Made by a program: the position numbers and the translations under genes. A model generated the notes under the pieces. That model saw only the letters and a list, made by a program, of their open reading frames with translations, was not told the origin of the DNA and made no database searches. This document shows, in pieces, positions 24,200 through 45,020 of a stretch of DNA of 64,000 bases; positions within the stretch are counted from its first letter, which is position 1; each line of letters begins with the position of its first letter. Source of the stretch: Candidatus Bathyarchaeota archaeon (GTDB lineage: Archaea > Thermoproteota > Bathyarchaeia > 40CM-2-53-6 > RBG-13-38-9); contig CAWECG010000005.1 of the NCBI GenBank assembly GCA_963807605.1, positions 1 to 64,000 of the forward strand, in the 5' to 3' direction.

Positions 24200-24455
24200 G
24201 TGAGCGCTTTTTTCTCAACTAACTAAAATAGGGAGGGTAATAATGTGAATGACTGTTGAAAAGGTAATGTTTTGATCTCACTGCTGGGTTATAATTGGAA
24301 TGGAAAGTATCCCATCTAAGATGTATGTACTAGCGCGCGCTTACATTTTGGTGTGTTTCCAATGGAAGCGCAGGCGCAGTCGAACGAACTCAACGGGAAC
24401 AACTAGCAAATCAGAAGACGATTAGGGTGCGGGTACTCGATGGCATCCGTCTTCT

Positions 24456-25424
24456 TTACGTGTTCAGTCTCTTACTCTCTTTCCATTCCACAAACCTTCT
24501 GAGTCCCTCTTTTAGGGAGAACTTGGGTTGGTAACCTAACACCCTCTTCGCTTTGGTTATGTCCCCGCAACTGTGCCTAACATCCCCACGTCTAGGCTCA
24601 TCATGGTTCGGTTTAACCCGCGTTACATTCATTACATCCATCAACGTTTCCGTCAACTGATTTATCGTTGCAGCGAGTCCGGTTCCCACGTTGATCACCT
24701 CTCCGGGAGCCTCTTTAGATACTGAAGCAAGAACCTGCGCTTCAACAACGTCTTCTACATACGCAAAGTCCCTTGTCTGTTCACCATCACCATGGATGAT
24801 AGGCGGTTCGCTTCTAAACAGCCTATCAACAAGCTTCGCTATGACTCCACTGTACTCTCCGGACACCTGCCTGGGACCGTAGACGTTAAAGAGACGAAGA
24901 GAGACCGTTCCGAGGCCGTAAACCTCATGGAACGCCTTGCAATATGCTTCAGCTGAAGCTTTGGAAGCGGCATAAGGAGAAAGAGGGGAAGATGGTAAGC
25001 CCTCATGCTGAGGCGTAACATTGGAATCTCCGTAGACTGCACATGAAGAAGCAAGAATGAATCTTCCAAGATTTGAGTTGAGGCTAGCCTCTAGCAGATT
25101 CAATGTGCCATTTACATTCACGTCGTGAACAGATTTAGGATCCTTAACGGACAGGGGGACTTCTATGATAGCCGCCTGGTGAAAGACGACATCGACCTCC
25201 TTGATCAGGTGTCGAACTAACTTGGGATCCCTTATGTCGCCTTTCACGAAATGAAAACTCTTCTTCCCGACATATGCTGAAAGATTTTCTTCTCTTCCAG
25301 AAACAAGATTGTCAAGAACTGTAATCTCGAGATCGTTCCTGATCAGCCTATCAACTATGTGACTGCCGATAAAGCCTGCACCGCCAGTCACTAGAGCTGT
25401 CGAATAACCCCTAGACAAAGACAA
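24456..25424 (-). CDS. NAD-dependent nucleotide-sugar epimerase/dehydratase (GalE/WbpP-like)
   Basis: TGGAGFIGSH, SSCAVYG, YAASK, FNVYGP, GDGEQTRDF. Confidence 0.93.
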   Translation of the reverse strand: MSLSRGYSTALVTGGAGFIGSHIVDRLIRNDLEITVLDNLVSGREENLSAYVGKKSFHFVKGDIRDPKLVRHLIKEVDVVFHQAAIIEVPLSVKDPKSVHDVNVNGTLNLLEASLNSNLGRFILASSCAVYGDSNVTPQHEGLPSSPLSPYAASKASAEAYCKAFHEVYGLGTVSLRLFNVYGPRQVSGEYSGVIAKLVDRLFRSEPPIIHGDGEQTRDFAYVEDVVEAQVLASVSKEAPGEVINVGTGLAATINQLTETLMDVMNVTRVKPNHDEPRRGDVRHSCGDITKAKRVLGYQPKFSLKEGLRRFVEWKESKRLNT

Positions 25425-25479
25425 TAATCCCCTTCCAAAGCACCAATCAAACCAGTTCGGGAACCATGATTACACCAAT

Positions 25480-25900
25480 TCAGAGGCTCATGAACGCGTT
25501 TTCGCCAGCCATCAGCTTTTATCCTTTAGGCAAATTTGTATCCGCAGAACAATCTTGGAATTGGTGCCTATCAGACTGTCGACTATTTGCTTCCCACATT
25601 GAATGATTGAGTTATCCAGGACTATTGTATTCTCTATCTCGCCGCCGTCAATGACAACATTGTCAACGATGGATGTGTAACGTCCGATATATGTTCCAGC
25701 GCCGATCTCGCAATTCTTACCTATAATCTCAGGGCTTCTAACGCAACATCCTTTAGGAATCACTGTTCCCTCACAAACGCCAACCCTGCCCATTATGGTC
25801 ATCTCAGCCTCAACCTTACCCCTATTGAACAGCTCCAGCTCTGATAGAACAAGCTGGTTTGCTTCGCGCGCTAAAAGACTGAGCGGTTTACCAAGAAAGG
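25480..25900 (-). pseudogene. C-terminal fragment of long-form glucose-1-phosphate thymidylyltransferase
   Basis: GKP...EANQLVL, IGAGTYIGRYTSI, EIENTIVL, IVDSLIG. Parallels the gene at 63688+, but has no N-terminal domain and a frameshifted tail. Confidence 0.75.
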
Positions 25901-25903
25901 TGT

Positions 25904-27019
25904 CTATGTCGACAAACCTTTGCGCCCAATGTTCCTCCATATCACCATCTCCAAGAAAGCCTCTCTTAAACCACTCATAAAAGAGGTATTGGCGCACGCT
26001 AGTATGCGCCGTAGGTAAACGTGTTCAGAAGGCTCACACTTCTTAATGGGCAGGTACATGCTGGAAAGTATCTCCTCCTCGCTAGTAACTCTACTGGCCT
26101 GCACTCTTAGCCGCCAAGCATATGTATACCTGAAATTGAGCAGATTCCACAGGATCGCTCTTGCGACCACGATCGCCTTCCTAGGCTCATAGATTAAGAA
26201 GCCTGCAGCGGCTATTAGGCTCAAAAGAAAATAGCTGTTTAGAGCCCAAGGGAGTGAGGAGCCGCAATTTTTGAGGATCGCAGTCAAAAGATGTCTATGA
26301 CAATAGTAGAGCCTACGTGTGTTCACGGTCTTATCTCCGAATGTACCAGAGAAATAGTGGGCAACCTTGGCTTCAGGTGCAAAAGCTACACAATATCCTA
26401 AGAGTCTCAGCCGCCAACACAATTCGGGTTCTTCACTAAAAAGGAAGAACCTGCCATCAAAGCCTCCAACCTTTACAAAGATGTTCCTCCTGATCAGGGC
26501 AGCCGCCCCACAGAATGAGAAAGGTTCGAAACTCCCAGAGTCATACTGCCTTTGGTCAAGCTCTTTTCGCCCTATGTCAACGAAGCCTCTCCAGAAGGGT
26601 ATTCCCATTCCCCCAACTGAGTCCAGTCGTGAGTGATCCTCCATTGAGACCAACTTGGAAGCGACAGCAGCGATTCTTGAATCTGCTGTAGCGGCATCAA
26701 CTAAACACTTAACCCAACTCGTATTCAAAACCTGAGTGTCAGTATTCATTAGCAGAACATAATCAGCCTCAACCTTCTCTATTGCTCTGTCATATCCCTC
26801 TGCATAACCCAAGTTCCTTCCGTAGCGGATTATCTTAACCCCTGGAAAACGTTTCTGAACATAATCCACAGATTCATCGGTACTCCCATTATCCACCAAG
26901 TAAATGTCTAGGTTTGGATAATCAGTATTAGCGATGCTTGATAGACAGTTGGGTAGCCACCTCAATCCATTATAGTTAAGTACCATCACTGCAACACGCA
27001 CGCATGCTCCACCAACCAA
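25904..27019 (-). CDS. GT2 glycosyltransferase (WbbL-like); extreme C-terminus possibly disrupted
   Basis: VMVLNYNG, VDNGSTD, NLGYAEGY, SFCGAAALIR. Close paralog of 23090-24199. Confidence 0.88.
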   Translation of the reverse strand: MVGGACVRVAVMVLNYNGLRWLPNCLSSIANTDYPNLDIYLVDNGSTDESVDYVQKRFPGVKIIRYGRNLGYAEGYDRAIEKVEADYVLLMNTDTQVLNTSWVKCLVDAATADSRIAAVASKLVSMEDHSRLDSVGGMGIPFWRGFVDIGRKELDQRQYDSGSFEPFSFCGAAALIRRNIFVKVGGFDGRFFLFSEEPELCWRLRLLGYCVAFAPEAKVAHYFSGTFGDKTVNTRRLYYCHRHLLTAILKNCGSSLPWALNSYFLLSLIAAAGFLIYEPRKAIVVARAILWNLLNFRYTYAWRLRVQASRVTSEEEILSSMYLPIKKCEPSEHVYLRRILACANTSFMSGLREAFLEMVIWRNIGRKGLST

Positions 27020-27188
27020 AGACCCTCCAATCAGGTTCAGTCACCTACTCAATATTCGGATTATGGGAACCGCCCGCCGGCGTTGCCAATATGATGCCAA
27101 TCTTCCACCAACCTTCCATTGTGAGTATAGAAGCCTTTCTGAATCATGGACCCCAGCGCGCGTAATCCTCCCTCCCTCAGCGCACGCT

Positions 27189-27349
27189 CCTTCCATTGTA
27201 GTTGATGACAACTACAGCGACTTCTGCAATCTTGGTCAATTTGCCTCTCTCTGCACCCGGGTTGTCTCAGGGTTCAAGCGCTGTGCGATATTTAATGGAA
27301 GTTTGGGTAGCCTATACTGATATTGTTATTTCATTCTTTCCACCTGACC
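27189..27349. repeat. About 160-bp dispersed repeat, copy 1 (upstream region and N-terminus of a GT2 gene on the - strand)
   Basis: Closely similar to 31175-31334; encodes EVAVVVINYNGR on the - strand. Confidence 0.85.
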
Positions 27350-27539
27350 ATGTGAGAGGACCTAGACCGAGTCGTTAAAACGATGGTTGATGGTTCTTCC
27401 GTTCTTGGATAGGGAGTCACCATTAAGGACAGGGCTAAGTGAGCCCCGCCTTGGAACCTCCCCATTTGCGCGACCTTTTGCCCATGAATGTTGAAGGCCT
27501 GATCGCTCACCTGATAAGCGCTGTATTCCGTAATTGGCT

Positions 27540-27735
27540 ACATGAAGAATTTAAACTCAGGGAGGATCATGTCAAGAACATAGAAGAATTGCTGCAATTC
27601 AGAAACGTAGAGATCCAAGAGATCCACAAAAGCATAAGTTGGCAGATCCTGAGAAAGTACGAGAATTTTCTACACAAATTATTCCCTTTAGGCACTAGGA
27701 GAAGACATTACTATGAACTGATACTCGGAGGCCTC
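27540..27735 (+). pseudogene. Orphan fragment of the coiled-coil/linker of a WsaE-like glycosyltransferase
   Basis: EIQEIHKSISWQILRKY...FPLGTRRRHYYELIL resembles EIEGSLGWQLILGY...LPPKSLRRRILEML in 34123-37128. Confidence 0.6.
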
Positions 27736-27868
27736 AGATCGGGTCCAAGCCCTTTAGAAAGAGCGCTTGATCAAAATAAGAAGACCGACAATATACATTT
27801 AAGTGAAAATCGCGACCAACATTCGAGTTCTGAATGATATCGAGGAGTAGAATAGAGGATCTATCTGC

Positions 27869-30844
27869 ATGAGATCTGGATTGAATCGAAGACTCCCATT
27901 TGATATGTTCCAGAGGTACATGCTTACAAAGGAGATCATCGATGCCGTCAAGGGAATTCGAAACGCGGCTATCTTGGATGTCGGCGGTCATCCAGGCGTC
28001 ATTTCAGACTTTTTGCCCATGGATGAAACGTACGTTATAGACTTGAAGGTTTGCAGGAAGAGAAATTTCATAAGAGCCGACTGTCAATTCTTGCCCTTTA
28101 GGAGCAGAGTTTTCGATGCCGTTACCAGCATCGATGTTTTGGATCATCTTCCTAAAGGAAAACGTCTTCCAGTTCTGTACGAACTACTTAGAGTGAGCAG
28201 ACGCTTCGTAGCCATAGCCGCCCCTTTTGATTCGGAAGACGTGAGAAGGGCAGAAGATACTCTCTACGACTACGTCGTGAATGTGCTTAGACGAGAGGAC
28301 GAGAATCTCAGGGAGCACGCCATGTATGGCCTTCCGAATCTAAATGAGCTCCGAAATTTCCTCGATTCCCAGAAGCTAGTTCATTTGGAGTTCTCAAACG
28401 GTTTCTTGAGCAGCTGGCTTCCAATGCAAATGTTGAACTTTCGCATCTCAAGTCCAGAAGTCTATCAACGGGTGAACCAACTTTACAACTTTGCATTCTA
28501 CCAGTACGACAATCTAGAACCCTCCTATCGAAAAATCATATTGATCGACAAAATTTCTAAGGACTCAACAGAACTTTCAGCTAGGACTGAGTCCATTAAG
28601 AAGAGAGAACTGGAAGACCGCTCATCGGAGAAACTCGAGCTCCTTCAGCGCGCACGCGCTAAGCTTGCCCTGGCTCTGGGCATCGCTCTGGATGAAGGTT
28701 TGCAGGGCCTATTTCGAAAGACCGTCGATCATTATGTTAAGCGACGTAAGCAATTCTTTGAGCTTGATCGTGATGAACAGTATCAGATATGGCTAAAGAA
28801 CAATGACTTGACTGAAAAGAAAGTTCTTGAAATGCAGCAGGAAATTTCAAAGCTGAGTTTCAAACCGAAGATCAGTATTGTTATGCCTGTCTACAATACG
28901 AGTGAAGAATGGCTCAAATTAGCGATAGAATCCGTTTCAAATCAATCCTATCCCAACTTGGAACTCTGCATAGTTGATGATGCCTCAACAAATGCATATG
29001 TCAGGAAGATTCTCAAGTCTTATGGCGCAAGGGATAACAGAATCAAGGTTAGATTTCTGGAAAAAAATCTCGGGATCTCTGGGGCGTCGAACGAAGCCTT
29101 AGCGATGGCTAGTGGGGATTTTGTGGGATTTTTGGACCATGATGATGAGCTTACAAAGGATGCCCTGTTTGAGGTTGTCAAGGTTCTTGATCAGAATCCG
29201 AAATTGGATTTGATCTATAGTGATGAAGATAAGAAGGATTTGAATGACCGCAGGGTTGAGCCCTTCTTCAAGCCTGATTGGTCCCCAGACCTTTTGCTGT
29301 CTATGAACTACTTATGCCATTTCAATGTGATAAGAAAGAGCTTGATAGATGAGGTTGGCGGTTTCCGCTTGGGCTTCGAGGGTAGCCAAGATTATGATCT
29401 GTTCTTGAGGGTTACGGAGTTGACCGATAAGATTGCGCACCTTCCAAGACCTCTCTACAGCTGGCGTAAAGTTCGCGGCTCCGCTGCAGCCTCGACGGAG
29501 GCGAAGCCATACGCTCGGGAGGCTTCAAAGAAGGCCTTACGCGAGGCTATTAATAGGCGTGGGCTGTCCGGAGAAGTAACAGACGGCTTTGGCGGTCACT
29601 ACCACATTCAATACTCAATCAGAGGCACACCCCTAGTGAGCATCATAATACCGACAAAGGACCGGCTTGATCTATTGAATCGTTGCATAGAGAGCATCGA
29701 GTCAAACACATTTTACAAGAACTACGAGATAGTCATCGTTGATAACGAAAGCATCGAACCCGCTACCCTTGACTATCTTAAATCTCAACCTCATACCGTC
29801 GTAAGGTTTGAGGGCCCCTTCAACTTCTCAAAGATCAATAATTTCGGTGCTAAGCATGCTAAAGGTGAACATCTACTTTTCTTGAATAATGATGTTGAGG
29901 TTGTTGATGGGGATTGGCTGGGCGCAATGCTTGAGCACTCACAGCGTACTGAGGTCGGAATAGTTGGGGGGCTCCTGCTATATCCTAGTGATGAAACCGT
30001 GCATGCTCCAAGCACAATTCAGCATGCAGGAGTGATCGTAGGGGTTGGAGGAGTGGCTGGGCACGCATTCAAGTACAAGCTGGCAGACGACTCTCAATAC
30101 TTCGATCTACACAGGGTCATTCGAAATTGCAGTGCAGTGACGGCCGCCTGTGCAATGATGAAGCGAAACGTATTCGAGGAGGTTGGCGGGTTCGATGAGA
30201 ATCTCAAGGTGGCATTCGGCGATATAGACCTCTGTCTACGTGTGAGGGAGAAGGGATACCGAATCGTCTATACACCACACGCCGTGCTGCGCCATCATGA
30301 GAGCGCAACTAGAGGCGAGATGCATCCGTTCGAGGACGAGACCTACATGATAGATCGGTGGAGAAGCTTCTTCATTAGAGGCGATCCTTACTACAACCCC
30401 AACTTGACGCTTCTCAAAGAGGACTATTCTCTTGCATCGAAAGGATCCGTCATCAGACCTCTCTCAGTGCTTTTCGACATTTACTATCTCAGACCAGATT
30501 TACGGAGGATCTGCCCTGAAGCGCGTAATGGTGATTATCAGAGGCTTATCGACTGGGCGGCCACTAGTGGCATAACAGTCGGTGCTGTGAGAGTGGCACT
30601 TCGACCCTACGGTGCCTACTATGCCTCCAATGCTTCTGATGGTGTAAAGCCGCTAGCCGCTTTGATAAATCTCTACAATTATAGGATAGAGCTCCAAAGT
30701 GGGTATCCTGAGGTTTTGAGAGGGGAATTTCGACGCTTGGTCAGCTGGGCAAATGAGGTGATTGCTAAGACTTTTGATGATAAAGCGTATACTGCCTTGA
30801 AGCCATACGAGGCAAGCTACCGTTCACTCATGGAAAGCATATGA
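27869..30844 (+). CDS. Multidomain methyltransferase-GT2-GT2 protein (WsaE/RfbC-like) with two C-terminal RxDL repeats
   Basis: ILDVGG (MT); SIVMPVYN...LDHDD...YSDEDK...FFKPDWSP...GSQDYDL (GT2 no. 1); SIIIPTKD...FNFS...LLFLNND...AVTAAC...GDPYYNPNL (GT2 no. 2). Confidence 0.9.
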   Translation: MRSGLNRRLPFDMFQRYMLTKEIIDAVKGIRNAAILDVGGHPGVISDFLPMDETYVIDLKVCRKRNFIRADCQFLPFRSRVFDAVTSIDVLDHLPKGKRLPVLYELLRVSRRFVAIAAPFDSEDVRRAEDTLYDYVVNVLRREDENLREHAMYGLPNLNELRNFLDSQKLVHLEFSNGFLSSWLPMQMLNFRISSPEVYQRVNQLYNFAFYQYDNLEPSYRKIILIDKISKDSTELSARTESIKKRELEDRSSEKLELLQRARAKLALALGIALDEGLQGLFRKTVDHYVKRRKQFFELDRDEQYQIWLKNNDLTEKKVLEMQQEISKLSFKPKISIVMPVYNTSEEWLKLAIESVSNQSYPNLELCIVDDASTNAYVRKILKSYGARDNRIKVRFLEKNLGISGASNEALAMASGDFVGFLDHDDELTKDALFEVVKVLDQNPKLDLIYSDEDKKDLNDRRVEPFFKPDWSPDLLLSMNYLCHFNVIRKSLIDEVGGFRLGFEGSQDYDLFLRVTELTDKIAHLPRPLYSWRKVRGSAAASTEAKPYAREASKKALREAINRRGLSGEVTDGFGGHYHIQYSIRGTPLVSIIIPTKDRLDLLNRCIESIESNTFYKNYEIVIVDNESIEPATLDYLKSQPHTVVRFEGPFNFSKINNFGAKHAKGEHLLFLNNDVEVVDGDWLGAMLEHSQRTEVGIVGGLLLYPSDETVHAPSTIQHAGVIVGVGGVAGHAFKYKLADDSQYFDLHRVIRNCSAVTAACAMMKRNVFEEVGGFDENLKVAFGDIDLCLRVREKGYRIVYTPHAVLRHHESATRGEMHPFEDETYMIDRWRSFFIRGDPYYNPNLTLLKEDYSLASKGSVIRPLSVLFDIYYLRPDLRRICPEARNGDYQRLIDWAATSGITVGAVRVALRPYGAYYASNASDGVKPLAALINLYNYRIELQSGYPEVLRGEFRRLVSWANEVIAKTFDDKAYTALKPYEASYRSLMESI

Positions 30845-30929
30845 AATTATTTCATTCATCAAAACGTGAGGCCGCTTCTTACGGAAGCGTAAGTTCGCTT
30901 CCTCCTTCCAATGTTAGGGATGCTTAGTT

Positions 30930-31235
30930 CTCATATACTTCGGAAGATGGATACTCACCCGTGCCATCATGTTTTATTATAGTTTTTTGGGACGCCATAA
31001 CCGTAGGACAAGCTCCTACTTGGACTGATTGAGGAGGTTTCTGGAAAATAGCGTGTCGGACAAGAGAATTCTCCAATCCGAAAACCATGCCACAACACTT
31101 GGGCAATGATCTCGTTATCAAAAACGAAGTTGTTAGAATTATCTGCATGGGGTCTTTATCGATGAAGCCACCTCCTTCCATTGTAGTTGATGACAACTAC
31201 AGCGACTTCTGCAATCTTGGACAATTTGCCTCTCT
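30930..31235 (-). pseudogene. Chimeric GT2 remnant (N-terminus of one GT2 joined to C-terminus of a DPM1-like GT2)
   Basis: The - strand reads VAVVVINYNGRRWL, then a stop, then NSNNFVFDNEIIAQVLWHGFRIGEFSCPTRYFPETSSI. Confidence 0.65.
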
Positions 31236-31334
31236 CAGCAGCCGGGTTGTCTCAGCGTTCCAGCGCTGTTTGATATTGAATGGAAGTTTGGGTAGCCTAT
31301 ACTGATATTGTTATCTCATCCTTTCCGTCTGACC
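31175..31334. repeat. About 160-bp dispersed repeat, copy 2
   Basis: Closely similar to 27189-27349. Confidence 0.85.
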
Positions 31335-31721
31335 AGCGCGCGTTCCTAGCTTTACAGGCTAGTAGAGCTCAGCGATTCGACTCCCCACTTTCCACCTCAC
31401 AGCTCCGGATGTGTCCGGCCGTCGCCTGTCCATGCAGACTATTGATCGAAGAGGCGCGGTCAGATACTTAAGTGCAGAGGCGATGTCATCGGAGGAGTCC
31501 CCAGGCAAGCCCGACACTTGTTTCGGCCAGTATTCCCGAGGAGACAAATTCTCACGACGCATCGGTGCAAGAGACACAAGCCAGTTCCGTAAGAATGCTT
31601 TCTGAGTTCTCAGAAATATATAGAACAACCAGATGAGTCACACAATATGATCTAGCTAGCAACATGTGTCCCTCTATATGAAGGAGGAGAATAGTCATGA
31701 AGAGTTGGGAGAGGGACATAA

Positions 31722-32596
31722 TTGGATCTCGTGCTGCGTCGAAGAAGGTGGATTATCCATAGAAAACTGAAAGGCCGGAAGATCAGGGATATCGTTAGTG
31801 CGCTGCGGATAAACGAGAAGACCGTTGACCGATGGTGTATCGTCCATCAGAAAGATGGGTGGGAGAGGCGGGTAGTAAAGTCTAGAAGACCACACCGATA
31901 TTACAAGACCCCACAGTCAACAGTGAACCTCATCGTCGAGCTGAGACACAGCAAACGTTGGGGGCCAAACAAGATCGAAGGATACCTAAGAAACTACAAG
32001 GTCGAAGGCAAGCGCGCGCGTCGAAGGCATCACACCTGTCAACCATAGAACCATCCATCAAATCCTAGTCGAAGACAGACTGAATAATCCTATCTCTGCA
32101 CCCAGAAAGGTCTGGGGTAAGCACAGATTCCAGCGGGAGCACAGCAACAGCCCATGGCAAGCGCGCGCTAGGCGACCATATCCGCTTCATTCCAGGCTCA
32201 AGAATCCACCACAACCCAACAACAGAGCAGGCGATCAAGCTCCTTGAAGAATACATGATACAATGCGGGAAGCCCAAACAGATACTGCCAGATAGAGGAA
32301 CCCAGTTCTATCCTGCCAGAGGAGGCAGGTCAGAGTTCACAAAGTTCTGCAGTGGAAATAGTATCGAGCATATTGTCACAAGCGTAAGGAGACCATCCAC
32401 AATCGGCAAGATCGAGTCCTTCCACAAAGCGTACGTCTGTGAGTCATGGATGTTTCCCACCCATGAAAATTTTGTGAGTTACTGGAATTACGAAAGACCT
32501 CCTCAGGGAATCAGTTATCTATATCCAGCAGACACATATTTTAGAGAGCTAAACATACTCACAGATGTGGGGGGGATAGAAGACTGGGAAGTTTGA
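31722..32596 (+). mobile_element. IS481-family transposase pseudogene
   Basis: HTH, SRRPH and WGPNKI; then RFQREHSNSPWQ, DRGTQF, RRPSTIGKIESFH and WNYERP. Frameshifts and a deletion at 32011 and 32160. Confidence 0.85.
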
Positions 32597-32788
32597 ACGG
32601 TTGGCGCTACTCTCAGTCACGCGCGCGCTTCATTGTGTGCTGATCACGCGTCTGTTCTGAGATCTCTCTGAACCTTTGATGTCCGTATTCTACTTCTCTC
32701 CAGATATCGCCCACCATCAGTGCAGCACCGAATGATTGAATTGTTGCGAAGCGAATTGACTGGCTCAGGTTACTTGTGGCGATCTTGA

Positions 32789-34111
32789 GTGATGGGAACT
32801 CTTAAGCTCGCGATCCAATATGCACGCAGGTTTGGTTTGAGGAGATCGGCCGCAGCACTTCTTCTGTACCTCAGTCGGAGATTGAACTCAGATATAGGCG
32901 TGAGCCATGTGGACGCGTTGCTCAAGTGTCGGTACTATGTGAAGAGGGAGTTGCTGAGTTATGATTTCTCGTCAACGGATAGCGCGCGCTATGTGAAGAG
33001 GGAGTTGCTGAGTTATGATTTCTCGTCAACGGATCTCGCGAAGAACAAAGCCATCATGGATAAATGGAATGCGACTTCGCCCAAGACGATATCTTGTGTG
33101 AACTGGTTTCTCCCGGACTATCATTCACCTTACGCTGGCGGTATTTATACTGCTCTGCGTTTTGCTAAGGCTTTCTCAACAGAAGGCGTATTGAACAGGA
33201 TCATCATATTTGATGGCCCCTACCATCGAGACCCTCGTGCTACAGCTTCGGAGATCAGATCTCTGTTTCCGAAAATGGGTAGACTCGAAGTCCTCGTCAA
33301 CCCTTCTAAGATACCGGACAGCACAATATGTATTGCAACATTTTGGCCGACTGCATACGTCGCGCTGAAGTTCAACAACACACAAGGCAAGTACTACCTC
33401 ATCCAAGATTTCGAGCCACTATTCTACGCAGCGGGACCATACTATGGACTTGCAGAAGCGACCTACAGATTTGGGTTCCTAGGGATCACGAATGGTCCGA
33501 GACTGAAAGAGATCTATCGAAACCAGTACGGAGGTGACGCTGAATACTTCTTTCCTACCCCAGATACGAATCTGTTCTATCCCTCGCCTGATCAGCCTAG
33601 GTCCAAGGTATCCCGCGTCTTCTTCTATGCCAGACCCGCGATGGAGAGGAATGCTTTCGACCTGGGAATCCTGGCACTGGAAAGACTCAAGAGAGCTCAT
33701 CCGGATTTGGAAATCGTTACTGCTGGCTGGGATCTGACTGCACACGAGATGCCAATCCCCGTCACGAACTATGGCTTGCTTAGCTTGAAGAAAACTGCTG
33801 AACTTTATCGGAGCTGTGACATGGGGTTGGTCTTCATGTTCACTAGGCATCCTTCGTACCTTCCAGGGGAGTTGATGGCAAGCGGATGTGTCGTCATCAC
33901 CAACAAGAATCCTGATAATGCGTGGCTGCTGCGTGACCGAGAGAACTGCCTGCTAACTGAGCCGACCGTATCCAGCATCCTGGAGACATTTGAGCTGGCC
34001 ATGGCGGATTATGATCTGCGAAGGAGTATTGTGAGGAGAGGGTCGGAGACTGTGAAGCAAACGAACTGGGACTTGGAGATACGTCGCGTCATGAAGTTCA
34101 TAACTGGCTAG
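32789..34111 (+). CDS. WsaF-like rhamnosyltransferase (GT4-type) with an internal 18-codon duplication insert
   Basis: GGIYTALRFA, IATFWPTAY, YLIQDFEPLFY, FFYARP...RNAFDLG, HPSYLPGELMASG. Confidence 0.8.
   Translation: MMGTLKLAIQYARRFGLRRSAAALLLYLSRRLNSDIGVSHVDALLKCRYYVKRELLSYDFSSTDSARYVKRELLSYDFSSTDLAKNKAIMDKWNATSPKTISCVNWFLPDYHSPYAGGIYTALRFAKAFSTEGVLNRIIIFDGPYHRDPRATASEIRSLFPKMGRLEVLVNPSKIPDSTICIATFWPTAYVALKFNNTQGKYYLIQDFEPLFYAAGPYYGLAEATYRFGFLGITNGPRLKEIYRNQYGGDAEYFFPTPDTNLFYPSPDQPRSKVSRVFFYARPAMERNAFDLGILALERLKRAHPDLEIVTAGWDLTAHEMPIPVTNYGLLSLKKTAELYRSCDMGLVFMFTRHPSYLPGELMASGCVVITNKNPDNAWLLRDRENCLLTEPTVSSILETFELAMADYDLRRSIVRRGSETVKQTNWDLEIRRVMKFITG
32935..33034. repeat. Perfect 46-bp direct repeat separated by AGCGCGCG
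   Basis: 32935-32980 is identical to 32989-33034. Confidence 0.95.
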
Positions 34112-34122
34112 GAGTCATTGGC

Positions 34123-37100: not shown

Positions 37101-37128
37101 CAATCTCAATATGCACATCTCCTTTCAT
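34123..37128 (-). CDS. Multidomain methyltransferase-coiled coil-GT2-GT2 protein (WsaE-like)
   Basis: IEIGSG, YCSHLLEH and LEISCPDF (MT); RGDLQQAFPE repeat; 4 x 21-aa coiled coil; two GT2 domains ending GDPFYNKNL. Confidence 0.9.
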   Translation of the reverse strand: MKGDVHIEIGSGQFQHWPEAIQVDVRPAPGIDVVADATCLPFDSEVTKGVYCSHLLEHLSYADGLLFLKESYRIMKKGSRLEISCPDFSALCRIYLLTQNLEHRIGDLDRLASTFYGNQSHWSDFHRSGYDYDLLSHQLLKTGFSRITRLPSAERIGNLREKKARELYELRVEAFKPIRRTGKRQISTEVQGLIWGSEAEYLKANARAVASRNALINRLSKSLSDPLSVLLQLYMMRGDLQQAFPEVLAGDYGRLVEWAGNTVDDRVDQDYRRLMRYAEWYKSSPWVELARIREALARTADEKDSVQRKLGEIREALARTADEKDSVQRKLGEIREALARTADEKDSVQRKLGEIREALARTADEKDSVQRKLGEIEGSLGWQLILGYRQLLVEKLPPKSLRRRILEMLFSQTMMMARLVASRKNAAPPASHHISRKAFMALPLNKQYQIFLASDPPDQVRIPKLRLEIAKMFKKPLVSIVMPVFETDDRCLRAAIESVRCQIYENWELCIVDDSSTRQSVARTLDYYRKLDHRVKVSFLRKRSGIAQASNAAIELAMGEFVAFLDHDDQLTDQALYEVVKCVNEHPDAHIIYSDEDKIDVDDKRIDPFFKPDWSPDLFLSMNYIPHFIVYRRSLLEELGSFRAGFEGSQDYDLALRAVERTNQIYHVSKSIYSWRMTPTSTALSLSAKPTAREAAKQALAQALERRGIHGGILDGYNQWYRVKYIPKGDSLVSIIIVTHDNPNLLKTCIESVQKKTAYRNFEIVVVDHDSRKPETLDYLRSLGHRIIRFEDEFNFAKFNNSASSTARGRYLLFLNDDTEAMQADWLGEMVGILDTRNDVACVGAKLLYPDGRIQHASVVLGLGGTAGHPFRGMPNAEPGYFGLAHMIRNCSAVTAACMLVRRDVFKAVGGFDERLVVGGNDVDLCIRMRKAGYQIVYNPYAVLYHREGATRGKAFPSSDYNYFIKKLRDDIANGDPFYNKNLSTESEHACYLINPRLLGF
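36001..36252. repeat. Four perfect 63-bp tandem repeats encoding IREALARTADEKDSVQRKLGE
   Basis: Units at 36001, 36064, 36127 and 36190 are identical. Confidence 0.97.
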
Positions 37129-37224
37129 AGTCTGACTAGTTCTCCTATGCCTGAGAATGATTCGGTCCCTTGTAGCGCTAGCAGGAAAGGGTGACTTAAA
37201 GACAGCGCCAGGAGATCATATTTA

Positions 37225-37761
37225 GCTGTTGATTGAATCCCTCTGGCTTCAGTCCAAGTGTGTGGAGCCATTCTGCTCCTTTCTGGGTGAATAATCCTTA
37301 TTCTGCTGGAGGCTTGACGCCTTCGTATGTGAGGAGGTTCTTTATCTTGACTCGCAGTTTGACGCGTTCCCTGACCAGGAATGCTCTTCTTCTTACCTGC
37401 TCTCGGAGTGCCGCTGTCTCCTCATCAGGCATTTATGCTGAAGGTAACGCATTCAACCTTACCAACTCAGCTATCACTTTAGAGTCGACTCTATCACTCT
37501 TTATCTTTGCCTCAGCGATGTAGCGTGTCTTCTTCGGATGAGAGACAGATACGTCATAACCTTTCTTTCTCAGCTGTCTGTACAGCGGTACTACTTGATA
37601 GGAGGCTTCCATACCGATTCTATTTATTTGATAATCCGAGAGTATGAGAGAATTCTATCATTCGCCATTCTTTTCTGACTGACTATTTCACCGTCACAAC
37701 TCACGATTGTTGCATAGGTTGAATCCTTATGCACATCTAAACCGCAAAAGTAAGCGCTCAT
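37225..37761 (-). mobile_element. IS110-family transposase remnant (N-terminal DEDD domain only)
   Basis: The - strand reads MSAYFCGLDVHKDS...IGMEAS...SHPKKTRYIAEAKIKSDRVDS...LREQVRRRAFLV, with a frameshift and stops. Confidence 0.85.
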
Positions 37762-37845
37762 AGTATGGCATGAGCGCTGACGCTTACCAAAAGCTCTTCC
37801 CATACCATCGCGCTAACAACCCCCAACCTCACCCTTCTAGCGCGC

Positions 37846-38971
37846 TAGCCTCTTGCAATATTCTTGGGCTTAACATGAAGATGTATACGTGTTTTTGATC
37901 ATAAGATCGATGAGCTTTACACCCGCTCATGCCGTTTCTGGTGAAAAAGGAGTGAGCGAGTGTAAGGCTCTGTATGATCTGTTTCAGGCTTTGGATTTAA
38001 CGTTTGTAGAACAAGTCTTGGAAAGAAGCTATGGGAGAAGAAGCAGGGTCGGCAGACCCCATAGAAATTTACTTGGAATGTTCAAAGCAGAGCTCATCAA
38101 ACGGCTAAGACATATCGAAAGCTATGAGGAATTGTATCGGCTCTTGTGGAGTGACGGTGAACTCTGCAAACTCTGCGACATCAAGGAATCAGAGAATCCG
38201 TATCACCCATCAATACTTCTGAGGTTTCGACGTAGAATAGGCCCTCAAGGATTTCACCGCCTCATGAACCGTCTGATCAAACAGCTCGACCACAGCGGCA
38301 TTCTGGACTCTGAAATCCTAGCGTTAGACGCCACATTCATCAAAGCTTACAGTCGAAGAGATCCTCACAATACCCAGTGTGGATTATCTGATTCTGAAGC
38401 CAGATTACGAAAACAAGGTAGAAACGTTGTCTTAGGCTACGGCATCCATCTGGCTGTAGATGCTGATAGTGAGATGCCGGTGGCAGTCACAGTGGAACCT
38501 GCAAACGTCAACGAAAAGAAGATCGCATCCCACCTACTCCATAAGACCTTGAAGTACAAACATAGGTGGAAGAGCGTGACTGCAGACTCACAATACTCCA
38601 GCGAATCCTTCAGGGATAAGGCAAGATCCATAAGTGTTGAGCCTGTCATCCCCTACCCCAAGAACCAGATGAAAGGCAAAAGAGTTCTACGTGTTGACAG
38701 AAGATTCCACACCCACGGACCTGCAAGGCTGAGACGTCTCTACCGAAAACGATCCTCTGTTGAGAGAACCGTCTCACGATTGAAGACACACTTCGGACTG
38801 TGCCAACTTAGAACCCGAGGATTAAGAAACGTCCTGTCACATGTAGTCCTATGCTTGATCGCAATGTTGACGGCTGCTCTATCAGCGATCAAGCAAGGAT
38901 ACACCCACAGAATGCGGTCACCAGTCCAACTCATGAAATTGACAGGACTAAAGTAATATTGCAAGAGGCTG
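37846..38971 (+). mobile_element. Apparently intact IS5/IS1182-like insertion sequence
   Basis: Terminal inverted repeats (T)AGCCTCTTGCAATATT and AATATTGCAAGAGGCT(G); flanked on both sides by GCGCGC (37840-37845 and 38972-38977). Confidence 0.85.
37889..38956 (+). CDS. DDE transposase (IS5/IS1182-like)
   Basis: GRP, ILALDATFIKAYS, GYGIHLAVD, TADSQYSS, YRKRSSVERTVSRLK. Confidence 0.9.
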   Translation: MFLIIRSMSFTPAHAVSGEKGVSECKALYDLFQALDLTFVEQVLERSYGRRSRVGRPHRNLLGMFKAELIKRLRHIESYEELYRLLWSDGELCKLCDIKESENPYHPSILLRFRRRIGPQGFHRLMNRLIKQLDHSGILDSEILALDATFIKAYSRRDPHNTQCGLSDSEARLRKQGRNVVLGYGIHLAVDADSEMPVAVTVEPANVNEKKIASHLLHKTLKYKHRWKSVTADSQYSSESFRDKARSISVEPVIPYPKNQMKGKRVLRVDRRFHTHGPARLRRLYRKRSSVERTVSRLKTHFGLCQLRTRGLRNVLSHVVLCLIAMLTAALSAIKQGYTHRMRSPVQLMKLTGLK

Positions 38972-38980
38972 GCGCGCTAG

Positions 38981-39415
38981 GACTACTCCCTTGCATCCAA
39001 GGGATCTAGCATCAGACCCCTAGCGGTTCTTCTGGACATCTACTATTTCAGGCCAGAACTACAGAGGACCTATCCTGAAGCAGGTAATGGAGATTATCAG
39101 AGGCTCATCGATTTGGCGGCCATCAACGGAGTGACAGTTGACGCTGCAAGGGCGTCGCTTAGACCCTATGGCTTCTACTACGCATCTAACACTTCTGATC
39201 GCAAAAAACCTCTTGCCACCTCAGTCGATCTTTATAATTCTAGGGTAGACCTTCAAAGCATATACCCTGAGGTTTTGATGGGCGAGTTTCGAGGGCTGAT
39301 TGGGTGGGCTAATGAAGTGCTCAGCAGTGATATTAGGGATGAAGCGTATTTCGTTTTGAAGCCTTATGAGGTCAGCTACCCTTCGCTGAGTGTACGAGAA
39401 TTGGCGAATGCTTGA
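38981..39415 (+). pseudogene. C-terminal fragment of a paralog of the 27869-30844 gene, interrupted by the IS
   Basis: DYSLASKGSSIRPLAVLLDIYYFRPELQRTYPE... matches the C-terminus of 27869-30844. The preceding NPNLTLL codons lie left of the IS at about 37817-37839. Confidence 0.85.
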
Positions 39416-39799
39416 GTATTCGCAGCGACAACGAGCGATATTTCGCATACACGTCATCGAAGGTGAGGAAGTTAATCGGCGAGAAGAAAGTTATAGTGGC
39501 GATGAACCGACGGACAACGCATCGAAGAAGCTTCGCATGATCTACGCGTGCGTAGAATGTTACAGTCCTCTTGGATTCTGAGTTCGAACAGTAGCTACTA
39601 ACAAATGTTTTCAATGACGTATCACTAACATACAAGGGCAAACGTGCCCGCAATGATGGTGTAGCCGATTTCATACTCTAGACATAGGCGAGGTCGCTGA
39701 CATTGCCTAAATTCAGTTTACTTTCGAGTTTAAGCCTGTCAAATCGGATTTCACAGAAGCTGAGGATGGTCAGCGCGCACTAGACTTGAGGTGTTCTAA

Positions 39800-42439
39800 G
39801 TGAAGTATCTTACATGTGAACAAAGCAGGGGATTTTCGATAGCGGTCAAGGAATACATAAATGAATTGTCAAGAAGACACGAATATCTTTACGCGGCAGC
39901 AAGTCTCTTAATCGTTACTTCGCTGGTGTATGGAGTAATAGTCTTCTTTGGCTTTAGTCTTTCTGCTGCCACATATAACCCTGGCGTCACGTCCTCCGGA
40001 CCTTATAGCTATGAAGGAAGACGTATCGGGATGCTCCCTGTTGTAGATCCAGCTGCTGAGGGGTACCAGACCCTACCTTTAAAAAAGTTAGTGATGCAGT
40101 ACATACTTCGCGGTAAACTTCCGCTGTGGAATCCTTATCTAGCTGCCGGCACGCCACTTGCAGCAGACACTTCTTTCAGCGCTTATGCGCCTCTTCAATT
40201 TCTCAGTTTCCTTCCAAACCAGCTTTGGGATTTGCTCACTCTTACCAACTTCTGGCTTGCAGGCTTCTTCATGTTCATTTTTCTCAGAGGCCTCAAATTG
40301 AGCAAACACAGCGCCTTCGCCGGAGCTGTTTTTTATATGTTATCAGGATCATTCACATTGTACCCAAATATGTCTTGGATAAATGTGATCGTTTTTACTC
40401 CGCTTCTCTTGTTTTACACTGAAAAACTTGCTCAGAGAGCTTGCATAGAATACATCACTCTGACTAGTATAGTTGTAGCTATTTGCATTCTAGGCGGATT
40501 CCTAGAAGTGATAGCTCTCCAACTCACACTAGCAGTTCTCTATTTACTCTTCAGAACCTTCGAAGCTCGAAGAGAACATTTTTGGAAAGCTCCTGTTGCA
40601 TTCACATCATCACTTATCCTAGGTTTTGGGTTATCCGCATTTTTCACGATACCAATCTTGGAATATATTTCATACTCATTTAATGCGCATAGCACAGGAA
40701 TTGGTTTAGCAGCCGCTCCAGCCCTCATTGCAATCACTTATTTCATCCCATATTTCATAGGTGGAGTACAATCTTATTGGACAGAAGCATTTCGCGCAAC
40801 AGGGAATCCTTGGGATATAGTTACTGGCTATGTGGGTGTTACCTGTTTATTTCTGTTGTCGCTTGGAGTGATATCATTGTTTAATAAGAAGTGCAAGATA
40901 GAAAATAAGCGTCTTGTTATCTTCTTTATGATTGCGGGAATAGTTGCTCTGCTCAAAACATTTGGAGCCCCGCTGGTCAATTGGGTCGGTTATCTTCCAG
41001 TCCTAGACCGAGTATTATTTCCTCGATACTCTGGGACGATATGGGTTTTTTGTTTCGCTGCGACTGCAGCTTATGGCGTGGAGGCACTCACCTCACACCA
41101 GACAAGGCTCAAACATGTCTTGATGGCTTCTGCAGTGACCATTTTGACCGTGATATTTCTTGTCTCCTTTAATATTCCATTTTTCGTCGATGTAGCCTCG
41201 ATCGCGTACTATTATCCTTCTTGGAGATTATTGGAAGGTTTTCTGTTTCTATTCGCGATCACAATGTGTTCTACAAAAATTTGCCAGAAGCAAGACTCGA
41301 GCCAGTTCCTTGGCTTAGCGAGTATCATCATACTTGAAATGTCCTTGCATATTCCTCTGGCTCTACCTTATTCCTTCGAAGCGTGCCGTTCTCTATTTAT
41401 TCTCTCGATGACATTATGCTTAGCTGGGTGGATTTTAACAAGCGATATACACTTCACGTTTTCTCTGAGAGGCGTCAGAGTTTCAAGAACCGTCATCATG
41501 ATTTTCATCCTCTCCGTCGCTTTGTTTGGTCAGATGATTATAGCTGCCACTAGTCCCTTCGGCCTACCACGACAATACGATGCCTTTAAGACAGCTCCTT
41601 ATCTTCAGTTTCTAGGTGAAAATGCAGGATTTTCAAGAGTGTATTCACTTGACGGCGTACTTGCTCCGAACTTCGCAGGCGTTTTCGGATTATATCATAT
41701 AGGGATAATGTCAGGCATCAATATCAATTCATTCCATAGTTTCGTACTCAATAATCTTGATTCACGATCTGTTACACCAATGTTTACGGGCGCATTTAGA
41801 TTACCTGGTACCAGCTCTGTTGATGAGCTGAGGACTAACGAAAGGTTCTATAGTTTTCTCGGTGTCAAATATGTAGTTACAAATGGTACAGATCTATCTC
41901 ACATGTTTCAGCTTGTCTATAGCGATGGAATCGCTAATATCTACGAGAATCCTAACGTCTTTCCACGAGCCTTTATAGTTCACAGATACCAAGTGGCTTC
42001 TTCCTTTGAAGAAGCCCAAGACATACTAAAGAATCCGAATTTCAACCTAAGAGAGAAGGTTATTTTGGAAGGAAGCTTGCCAGAAATCGGAGTGAATGCT
42101 CTGGAACAGACGCCTTTGGCGGACAGCTCCACAGCTAAAATAGAATGTTACGAACCGGACAGGGTTTTCATTAAAGCCTTCGCCGAACATCCCGAGATAC
42201 TAATCCTTACTGATACCTTCTATCCAGGATGGGAGGCACATGTAGACGGAGTGCCAACAACCATCTACCGAGTAGACGGTCTTGTGAGAGCTGTATATCT
42301 GAGCAAGGGAGAACACACGGTAGAATTCATCTACTTCCCTGAATCGTTTAAAATTGGTTTAACGATTAGTGTCATCTCGGCTATCACCTTGATTATGCTG
42401 CTACTCATCGACAAATTCAAGTTGCAAAAATATGCTTGA
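39800..42439 (+). CDS. YfhO-family GT-C membrane protein
   Basis: PLWNPYLAAGTPLAAD, many TMs, FPRAFIV, LTDTFYPGWEAHVDG, GEHTVEF. Confidence 0.88.
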   Translation: MKYLTCEQSRGFSIAVKEYINELSRRHEYLYAAASLLIVTSLVYGVIVFFGFSLSAATYNPGVTSSGPYSYEGRRIGMLPVVDPAAEGYQTLPLKKLVMQYILRGKLPLWNPYLAAGTPLAADTSFSAYAPLQFLSFLPNQLWDLLTLTNFWLAGFFMFIFLRGLKLSKHSAFAGAVFYMLSGSFTLYPNMSWINVIVFTPLLLFYTEKLAQRACIEYITLTSIVVAICILGGFLEVIALQLTLAVLYLLFRTFEARREHFWKAPVAFTSSLILGFGLSAFFTIPILEYISYSFNAHSTGIGLAAAPALIAITYFIPYFIGGVQSYWTEAFRATGNPWDIVTGYVGVTCLFLLSLGVISLFNKKCKIENKRLVIFFMIAGIVALLKTFGAPLVNWVGYLPVLDRVLFPRYSGTIWVFCFAATAAYGVEALTSHQTRLKHVLMASAVTILTVIFLVSFNIPFFVDVASIAYYYPSWRLLEGFLFLFAITMCSTKICQKQDSSQFLGLASIIILEMSLHIPLALPYSFEACRSLFILSMTLCLAGWILTSDIHFTFSLRGVRVSRTVIMIFILSVALFGQMIIAATSPFGLPRQYDAFKTAPYLQFLGENAGFSRVYSLDGVLAPNFAGVFGLYHIGIMSGININSFHSFVLNNLDSRSVTPMFTGAFRLPGTSSVDELRTNERFYSFLGVKYVVTNGTDLSHMFQLVYSDGIANIYENPNVFPRAFIVHRYQVASSFEEAQDILKNPNFNLREKVILEGSLPEIGVNALEQTPLADSSTAKIECYEPDRVFIKAFAEHPEILILTDTFYPGWEAHVDGVPTTIYRVDGLVRAVYLSKGEHTVEFIYFPESFKIGLTISVISAITLIMLLLIDKFKLQKYA

Positions 42440-42565
42440 GGTTCTAGAGGCGGAAGGCAAATAATTAGATCTTGCTATAATCCGATAAATGATCTCACCC
42501 GTTTGCTTATCACATACAGGATGCTGTAACGATTTTAGTTCGGCGCTTGGACACTATTCAACGTT

Positions 42566-43049
42566 GCGCGCGAGACCAGGAGTATCCCTTCCAAGATTGT
42601 TATCATAAGCGACATATATCAGTACAGTCCATTGTCTGGAAGGAGGATTTGGGGCAAAATTGGCGGTTAGTGTTCCAGGCCCATTCACAGTCAAAGTAGT
42701 CGGACTTACTGTCAAGCTCGTAACACTAAGCATTCCGGATACAGAGCAAGAAGTAAAGTGATAATTTGTTGGCGGATTGGCCGTAATAGTCACCGTGTTA
42801 CCGTAGTTTGGAGGCAGACTTCCCTCCCATCGCGTTTGACCATGCGTATAGGTGTTGCTGCTACCATGTGATCGATCGACCACTGGAAGGATTCGTATTG
42901 GTGATACCAGAGCTGCATACTCTCCAATAATCCAACCGTTCCCATTCACATCCATCGTTGTAGGATTCGCGGCAACGTTCGGAACATAAACCCTTGTTGG
43001 CTAGCTTCCACCACCAGGATTCCGGTTATCATATGTCCAGCGCGCGCTT
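42566..43049 (-). pseudogene. Fragment of a surface protein (InlB-B-like repeat plus start of a clostripain/C11 domain)
   Basis: VTITANPPTNYHFTS...TLTANF, then QWTVLIYVAYDNNL, truncated; internal stop near 43001. Confidence 0.6.
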
Positions 43050-43250
43050 GCCAAATTATGAGAATAGGCTCAAGAAAACACCGATTATTTTGTAGCGACC
43101 GCAGCAAATGTCCAAATATTTTCTGGCCATTCATCAGATATGACTACTAGGTCTAAGATCTGGTGGTGTCCCAACAATTTTTAGGATAATAGCTATCGAC
43201 ATCAGTCTCATCAATTAGGACGGAACTGAAAAGCATATTTCTGCACCCGC

Positions 43251-45020
43251 TTACTTTCTCCCCTCTTGTTGTCTTTTTGGATCAGTAGCTACCTCTCCCA
43301 AGATATTGACGCGCGCGTACGTAAACGAATCTTGTGATTGCGAAATCGAGTATAAGGTGGGCTTTGCATAAATCCTGATGTTCATCAGGCCTGCATCGGT
43401 ACTAAGCAGGGTCTGCAGCTTCGAGAAATCCATGCGTGCTAGGCTAGGTGCGTCGAAGAAGTTGATCATGGGCATGTCATTCCTAAAGCTAGCTATAAGA
43501 ATCATTTGAGAGATGCATGACGTGATTCGTCCATATTGCGAGCTCACGCTGGCCAAGTAATCCAGGACAACAAAGTCTGCATGATCGATTCCATCAATGG
43601 CGCGCTCGGATGGATCATCAAAGGTTACGTTGATATTCTTCTCACTTAGTCTCAGATATGTGAGCAATACTTCTTGAGTCTTTATCCAGACGGAGGCTCC
43701 TTCAGGAACATGCGCCAAGATGAATTCCGCCGCGTTCCGATATCCAGAGTGTGGGTTTGTTACGACAGACAGGGAGGACGGCAGGATTGTGACAATCAGA
43801 CTAATGACGAGGATTGTCTTTGATACCCGTCCGAACCTGTGAGTCCTGAAATGAACCTGACCAAGCTTGTCTATCTCTCTCGCAAGCGACACTGTACCAC
43901 GAGCTGAGAGTATTGCAATTGGCACCAGTGCCGGAAGAATTACGCGAGCGTATGGTGGCCATAAAGACGAGAAATACACAAAAAATGTGGAGAACCATAT
44001 AATTAGGAGGATGTCGTCAACGCTCCTCTTGACTATCCCCCTTGCACCACCCACCACAGCAAGTGCTAGAACTGGGACGGCAACAGAACCTAGTAGGACT
44101 CTCAAATAGAAATCAGCGGTCACAAAGGGTTGGAGGTTGTTTATCATTGCTTTTGTCGGCAAAACCACGTCATTTAGGAAGATGAATCCGTGAGCGACTC
44201 GTGATGGAATGTTTAACATCATAGCAAGGAAGGCATTCAAATCTGTGTAGGGGAATGGTTCGGCGATGTAAGCTAGAAACAGCAATACGAATACGAAGAA
44301 GGGGGCAGCTGACAGCCAAAGTCCAGAAATTGCTCGCGCTAATCGTCGACTCGCACGTGTAACGAGCATATGAATATGGAGGCCGTTCTTCCAACTATCT
44401 GAAACCGCGAAGATTGGTAGGAAAACCAAGATTACGATTAACGCTTGGAAGCCATAATACTTGGTCGCAGTTGCCAGAGCTAGCAGAATCCCCCCCATCA
44501 AATAGATTGAGTTCTTTTGCTTGGCAATGGCCTGCGCGTATACGAAGATCGTGCAACTGACGAACAATGTGAAGACCATGTCGGCTAGTGCCATTCTAGC
44601 GAAGAGAAGAAAAAAACCAGTGCTCGTCAGGATGGTGGTAGCGACTGCGGCTGTTGTCAAATCATATGTGTTCCTAGTCCACACAAACGTCACAATGCAC
44701 AAGAGGAGCGCTGCTATGCCAGATGTCGCCACTGCCACGTAATCATGCACTCCGAACATTCTAAACATGATCGACACGATCAAAGAGAAGAGACCCGGAT
44801 CGTAGAACAAAAAGATCCCTCGCCCGAGGCCGCCGAAAGCAAGTGCAGACTCAACCCAGTAGAATTCATCCCAATGACAGAGACCATTCGCCGCGAAATT
44901 CCAGAAAATCATTAGGCCAGCCAGAACAAAAGGGCCGGCTACGCAGGAGATCTCAATTAAGGAAGACCTTTGAGTAATCACAACCCACCGGCTTCGAAAA
45001 TCCCTTCGCATGTCAACCAC
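43251..45020 (-). CDS. ArnT/PMT-like GT-C glycosyltransferase (GT39/GT83)
   Basis: HWDEFYW, YDPGLF, ARMALAD, ATKYYG, multi-TM, and ARVILPALVP. Confidence 0.82.
   Translation of the reverse strand: MVDMRRDFRSRWVVITQRSSLIEISCVAGPFVLAGLMIFWNFAANGLCHWDEFYWVESALAFGGLGRGIFLFYDPGLFSLIVSIMFRMFGVHDYVAVATSGIAALLLCIVTFVWTRNTYDLTTAAVATTILTSTGFFLLFARMALADMVFTLFVSCTIFVYAQAIAKQKNSIYLMGGILLALATATKYYGFQALIVILVFLPIFAVSDSWKNGLHIHMLVTRASRRLARAISGLWLSAAPFFVFVLLFLAYIAEPFPYTDLNAFLAMMLNIPSRVAHGFIFLNDVVLPTKAMINNLQPFVTADFYLRVLLGSVAVPVLALAVVGGARGIVKRSVDDILLIIWFSTFFVYFSSLWPPYARVILPALVPIAILSARGTVSLAREIDKLGQVHFRTHRFGRVSKTILVISLIVTILPSSLSVVTNPHSGYRNAAEFILAHVPEGASVWIKTQEVLLTYLRLSEKNINVTFDDPSERAIDGIDHADFVVLDYLASVSSQYGRITSCISQMILIASFRNDMPMINFFDAPSLARMDFSKLQTLLSTDAGLMNIRIYAKPTLYSISQSQDSFTYARVNILGEVATDPKRQQEGRK

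Follow-up and report, generated by a model that had tools for sequence, protein, structure and literature searches.

What writes the short GC palindrome that recurs in this stretch of DNA? The window, 64,000 nucleotides at the start of contig C5 (CAWECG010000005.1) of a 2.65 Mb Bathyarchaeia genome (G000 below), contains between 24 and 43 kb a glycosylation island with remnants of insertion sequences (ISs), and here copies and variants of the 10-mer AGCGCGCGCT are found. To judge from the sequence, the motif is new DNA, written de novo at the junctions of rearrangements as a scar. We put at roughly three in four the probability that its author is a ribonucleoprotein in which a stand-alone archaeo-eukaryotic primase (AEP) copies the template of a small structured RNA onto 3' ends, whose self-complementary tails then join.

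The abundance and placement of the motif are those of an insertion at junctions. By genome-wide count AGCGCGCGCT is the top-ranked palindromic 10-mer of G000, with 106 exact copies where an order-2 Markov model expects 1.4. Alternating GC runs of 7-15 nt, with a length peak at 8, number 447 and are concentrated in accessory regions; they decay with a transition bias. The motif occurs in a major phase, of 106 copies, and a minor phase, of 30. Only 2 of the 106 exact copies lie inside open reading frames (ORFs) of at least 150 aa, against 67% of nearby control positions. A comparison of G000 with itself places 97 of the 447 runs at a border of paralogy, where controls give 14 +/- 4, and 8 in the interior of a paralogous segment, where controls give 79. 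Of 145 flanks, 114 have a paralog that is free of the motif at the breakpoint; the remaining 31, in which it is shared, are IS ends or copies that arose after the scar. As the motif avoids genes and marks the limits of paralogous segments, with no counterpart in the partner segment, it has been written de novo at the junctions. Among the two-sided junctions are cases in which 6, 6, 17, 46 or 252 nt have been replaced and others in which 10 or 46 nt have been duplicated, and several captured segments are flanked by scars on both sides.

The window, in which 11 alternating GC runs of at least 7 nt lie within 24301-43400, none in 1-24300 and none in 43401-64000, presents these junctions as follows, with a strand given where one applies.

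24332-24341: exact scar AGCGCGCGCT, intergenic.
27155-27188: two variant scars; homology to 31172-31335 starts within the second.
28647-28660: decayed GC tract, in frame within a 991-aa methyltransferase/GT2 ORF.
31335-31344: variant scar that closes a 164-nt duplicated segment on its right; unrelated bases follow in the paralog.
32001-32029: 10-nt direct duplication, its copies separated by a 9-nt GC patch, within an IS481-like pseudogene.
32160-32169: exact scar; the IS481-like paralog has about 46 nt in its place.
32620-32629: 9-nt GC run, slightly past the IS481-like remnant.
32935-33034, plus strand: 46-nt perfect duplication, its copies separated by an 8-nt patch (32981-32988), in a WsaF-like glycosyltransferase ORF; the net gain is 18 codons and the reading frame is kept.
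37809-37816: short GC tract at which homology to C5:72979-73088 ends.
37839-37845: left half of an IS-split scar, with a 4-bp duplication, GCGC, at 37842-37845.
37846-38971, plus strand: DUF772 + DDE_Tnp_1 insertion sequence, sitting in the scar centre.
38972-38978: right half of the IS-split scar; next comes a fragment that has a paralog at 30420-30563.
39772-39781: variant with one CG-to-CA change, intergenic.
42566-42572: short GC tract close to one end of a gene fragment.
43039-43048: exact scar at the opposite end of that fragment.
43309-43318: ACGCGCGCGT, minor phase, in agreement with the template carried by the primase-RNA copy that is intact, on contig C3.

An earlier note on this DNA, made from the letters alone, had placed the exact 10-mer at 24332, 32160, 32981 and 43039, above chance and nearly absent from 45-64 kb. 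All of this is borne out, and its variant sites lie at the places it gave or within 1-2 nt of them, those at 37837 and 38969 being two halves of the single IS-split scar, while those at 25865 and 25992, in intact-looking ORFs, may be chance occurrences. Paralogs likewise confirm what it had read at individual sites: the motif between duplicated copies at 32011 and 32981 (the 10-nt and 46-nt duplications), the replacement of deleted codons at 32160 (46 nt of the IS481-like paralog), and homology that stops at 27179 and 31335, the two ends of the 164-nt segment, and at 37809. For 24332, the left side of 27155, 28647, 32620, 39772, 42566, 43039 and 43309 no paralogs were found.

Could the motif instead be the footprint of a transposase, or a pre-existing recombination site akin to the HIP1 palindrome? 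The earlier note had offered a transposase footprint and a HIP1-like iterated palindrome, next to an undescribed activity adding (GC)n at breaks. Two related IS families in G000, the one at 37846-38971 with 6 further full copies and the other with 7 copies, are indeed embedded in the motif at both ends. Both combine DUF772 and DDE_Tnp_1, and on insertion at the scar centre duplicate 4 bp, GCGC. Their relatives in G001, G002, G008, G047, G052 and G260 likewise lie within GC runs, but in most motif-rich genomes, among them every member of family f29, no such element was found. The window IS thus uses existing scars and does not make them, and ISs possibly treat scars as safe landing sites. A recombination site would be expected in the paralogs, which lack the motif at the breakpoint, and a HIP1-like palindrome fits poorly with avoidance of ORFs, insertion de novo, and the search result that no intact C5 methylase was found in three rich genomes (G000, G212 and G103; m4C enzymes were not searched for). 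We consider this pair of explanations very improbable, and of the three offered it is the break-healing activity that gains support, with a candidate enzyme and template now proposed, both outside the window.

The register of the scars constrains how they were primed. Among 76 clean half-junctions, 56 are in phase with T-A-(GC)n: in 12 a templated T is followed by A and then the run, in 20 an A leads directly into the run, and in 24 a G or C is continued in phase. A single untemplated A follows a non-T base in 2 cases, against 12 after a templated T, and symmetric junctions are in excess over mixed-phase ones in G000. The rule is compatible with a fixed template paired through at least one base, not with plain A-tailing. 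Hairpin capping of ends was also considered and rejected, as there is no added palindromy outside the 10-mer.

A gene and an RNA that could provide such a template occur together. The gene encodes a stand-alone AEP (C3:72237-73127 of G000), whose family counts at least 140 proteins of about 260 aa in which the catalytic residues do not vary (DxD, SGxxGxH and a third Asp; D96, D98, H154, D205). Its predicted fold is that of PriS (pLDDT 89; best matches archaeal PriS structures, E ~1e-10), and the replicative PriS of G000 is a separate, 419-aa gene. Among 53 near-full loci with room downstream, some of them redundant, no gene neighbour is conserved, a PriL-type partner included; in all 53, an RNA element of about 105 nt overlaps the last codons of the gene on the same strand. 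Beside one more distant copy of the gene, that of G191, no RNA is present. The RNA, modelled from 23 sequences and without a match in Rfam, starts with a 5' strand, which is followed in order by a hairpin with CUGA and GAUGA at its closure, a single-stranded stretch with an A-rich run at its end, and a second stem, the loop of which pairs with the 5' strand in a pseudoknot. The closure of the hairpin we take to be K-turn-like, by its likeness to box C/D motifs. Two-sided changes, G-U pairs included, are seen in 15 of 19 pairs, against 3-6 in slid controls, a comparison partly favourable by construction since the structure was derived from the same sequences. The putative template is a 4-nt palindromic core within the single-stranded stretch, and this core varies between loci. 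G000 carries two copies of the RNA, one at C1:380242-380350 with template GCGC-UA, whose gene is broken, and one at C3:72270-72376 with template CGCG-UA, whose gene is intact.

Does the scar follow the template? In G000 the two RNA copies match the two scar phases, GCGC-UA the major (106) and CGCG-UA the minor (30). G031 has the AEP gene and no GC motif; its template core is GGCC, from which ACGGCCGGCCGT was predicted ahead of the search. This word has 15 exact copies in the congener G052, or 44 when one mismatch is allowed (control 5), one exact and one variant copy on the contig of the AEP gene in G031, and no exact copy in G000. In a blind test, the flanks of the loci were pooled by template and the top palindrome was sought: GCGC-template flanks returned GC runs (82 vs 2.1 expected), AGCT-template flanks AGCTAGCT (12 vs 0.4; permutation p 0.002) and GATC-template flanks GATCGATC (8 vs 0.3). 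A second GATC locus has three GATC tracts within 8 kb; both GATC loci are nested in the GCGC clade, and we read their template as a recent switch from it. Two TGCA loci carry local TGCA tracts. Even the base ahead of the run tracks the RNA, being A-G in 80 and T-G in 19 cases with GCGCUA templates, and A-G in 1 and T-G in 12 with CGCAUA templates. Scars mostly contain two cores, although some tracts of the GATC and TGCA kinds hold three to four.

Three side observations touch on these templates. One UGCA-template RNA copy has a four-unit TGCA tract in its own second stem (L342:1961-1976), like self-scarring. G052 holds both scar types (83 GC besides the exact GGCC copies) without detectable RNA or gene, which suggests that it was visited twice in the past by different elements. 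The control word TCGCGCGCGA is high, at 13-26 copies, in genomes G106, G116, G136, G138, G144 and G176 of family f22, which also holds the AEP gene or RNA; another scar phase and base composition are both conceivable for it.

Several results weigh against a templated origin as proposed here. The major-phase scars of G000 match the RNA copy with the broken gene. As a pooled class, TGCA templates gave no significant palindrome (p 0.27), and genome-wide tests were weak in G313 (TGATCGATCA, 8 copies, vs 4-5 in genomes without that template) and negative in G314 (GTGCATGCAC). The template classes are mostly clades, and therefore the loci are not independent. The RNA was found in 7 of 33 motif-bearing panel genomes, the intact AEP gene is rarer still, and in G052, G212, G103, G188 and G002 no RNA was found even with looser filters; the model therefore has to suppose that the element was lost after a hit-and-run visit or that its carriers were left unassembled. 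AEP gene fragments in G003, G007, G009, G013, G111 and G115 fit such a loss of the element. Where the RNA model was searched in 80 genomes, 11 were positive, namely seven motif-rich ones, G031 and three of family f22, and the other motif-poor genomes had none.

In a panel of about 300 genomes of the class, the motif-rich lineages are scattered, comprising most of family f1, all five genomes of f29 and some of f17, f9, f10 and f26, with the motif at background level in most other lineages. Such patchiness points to a mobile cause rather than to an artefact. That the scars stem from library preparation or assembly is scarcely credible when they occur in more than 25 separate assemblies with a lineage pattern, decay with a transition bias, are common to paralogs after duplication, and are split by IS copies with target duplications.

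A host enzyme might also tail broken ends with GC-rich sequence and join them by microhomology, so that the match to the RNA would be incidental. There is a precedent in the replicative PriSL of Saccharolobus, which performs microhomology joining with GC-biased insertions of 1-2 nt (PMC12019639), and many scarred genomes now lack the element. Yet no alignment column of PriS discriminates motif-rich from motif-poor genomes, family-B polymerases show no pattern matching the motif, nor do DNA ligases or TopA, and a Dpo4-type polymerase, which fitted 5 genomes, failed on 301, being common in motif-poor ones. Above all, a host enzyme would not change the scar to AGCT, GATC or GGCC in step with an RNA template, and we regard this explanation as improbable. 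Neither does Ku/LigD end joining track the motif: Ku occurs in G000 and 10 motif-poor f2 genomes and in no other rich genome, and LigD polymerase has the same pattern, save a short match in G047. A second PriS-like AEP family of about 260 aa was likewise set aside, as it occurs in motif-poor genomes and has no template-like sequence at its end. A tRNA as template failed, no RVT_1 match to a reverse transcriptase was found in G000, and subtracting motif-free G005 from G000, with 30% of G212, left no candidate.

Some of these genes are of note in themselves. The Ku-LigD operon (L015:10209-12822; G000 C1:589.6-592.2 kb) is the sole Ku found in family f1, and its ligase gene is split in two. L084 (G000 C3:667.3 kb) is a Y-family polymerase of the Sulfolobus Dpo4 type, widespread in the class beside DinB-type copies. 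The second AEP family (L034:1276-2049) adjoins a DNA ligase in family f2, and its first catalytic Asp is Asn in G000. Among other mobile or repeated DNA in G000, (CA)n tracts of up to 116 nt, an unusual microsatellite length for a prokaryote, adjoin a repeated CTCACCAGCT element (C3:39707, C1:520645, C4:19365), and a dense ORF cluster at about 480-655 kb of contig C4, judged by eye to resemble IS200/IS605 TnpB, is a possible source of breaks.

How would a templated scar arise? From the de novo insertion, the register rule, the gene-RNA linkage, the covariation and the template-scar match we infer a course of end capture, copying and joining. A free DNA 3' end would anneal, by a single base or a few, to the 3' edge of the RNA template, which the AEP would then reverse-transcribe, adding for instance T-A-GCGC; realignment may add further cores. 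Because the core is palindromic, the tails on two ends could pair, and host fill-in and ligation would leave prefix-core-core-prefix'. Any two ends would be joinable, giving rise to deletions, duplications, truncations and captured fragments, and scars would outlive an element that is mobile and often lost. It is thus likely, in our estimate, that a primase-fold archaeal ribonucleoprotein joins any two broken ends by telomerase-like copying of a palindromic template onto them. The same element could have evolved for another job, the making of free repeat DNA for defence in the manner of DRT10 or for its own replication, with host end joining capturing the oligonucleotides. Template matching fits this equally well, and the gene is patchy, often broken and without a conserved neighbour, and in G000 has genes for a KAP NTPase and a helicase in its vicinity. 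The one-base register match and the finding that symmetric junctions outnumber mixed-phase ones favour priming on the broken end, however, and leave the alternative doubtful. For the templated joining of ends, a role in repairing breaks from the genome's many mobile elements, rather than in DNA capture or defence, seems most likely.

If this holds, archaea, most lineages of which are without Ku, would have a reprogrammable, Ku-independent way to join double-strand breaks, and the healing of ends from an RNA template would have arisen a second time, independently. The scars would serve as a record of rearrangements and of their relative ages. With one protein of about 260 aa and one RNA of about 105 nt, the small two-part system and its natural template variants make the claim directly testable, and could become a programmable tool for DNA tailing or joining.

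The HIP1 palindrome of cyanobacteria is spread through the genome, coding DNA included. Like the motif of G000 it is a short, GC-rich palindrome in strong excess, whose variants are patchy and lineage-specific, but it is linked to methyltransferases and has a proposed origin in repair-driven point changes (PMC4390886, PMC5861425), whereas the G000 motif keeps out of genes and arises by insertion at junctions. Closer in enzymology are Saccharolobus PriSL (PMC12019639, PMC3333859), AgaPP (PMC11724360), IEE and the polymerase domain of LigD, AEPs that extend 3' ends and anneal them by a few GC pairs; no dedicated RNA template and no fixed insert have been described for any of them, and their insertions are mostly of 1-2 nt or locally templated. 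The PriS-like N-terminal domain of PolpTN2, without the PriL part, reverse-transcribes RNA in vitro, although PolpTN2, unlike our candidate, is a plasmid replication primase with no cognate RNA reported (PMC3973330). Our search of open-access papers for an RNA-templated primase system of this kind found no description, and as far as we found it is new in kind. The known writers of repeats from a built-in RNA template are telomerase and DRT10, both reverse transcriptases, and the candidate belongs to neither because it has no reverse-transcriptase domain. With telomerase (TERT and TR) it shares a structured RNA with an internal template next to a pseudoknot, and with the interstitial telomeric insertions that telomerase makes at double-strand breaks (PMC2246262) template-defined repeats at repaired breaks, recognized by comparing filled and empty sites; unlike in telomerase, the fold of the candidate catalytic protein is AEP/PriS, a palindromic core allows two tails to join, and the element is archaeal, mobile and without known telomeres. 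DRT10 is likewise a prokaryotic enzyme with an adjacent noncoding RNA whose template dictates tandem-repeat DNA, but it is a protein-primed reverse transcriptase with a SLATT effector, acting in antiviral defence (bioRxiv 10.1101/2025.10.16.682844), whereas the candidate is an AEP, apparently primed by DNA ends, without a conserved partner, and its products remain in the chromosome. A primase version of such a system would, if confirmed, represent an independent archaeal invention of RNA-templated repeat writing.

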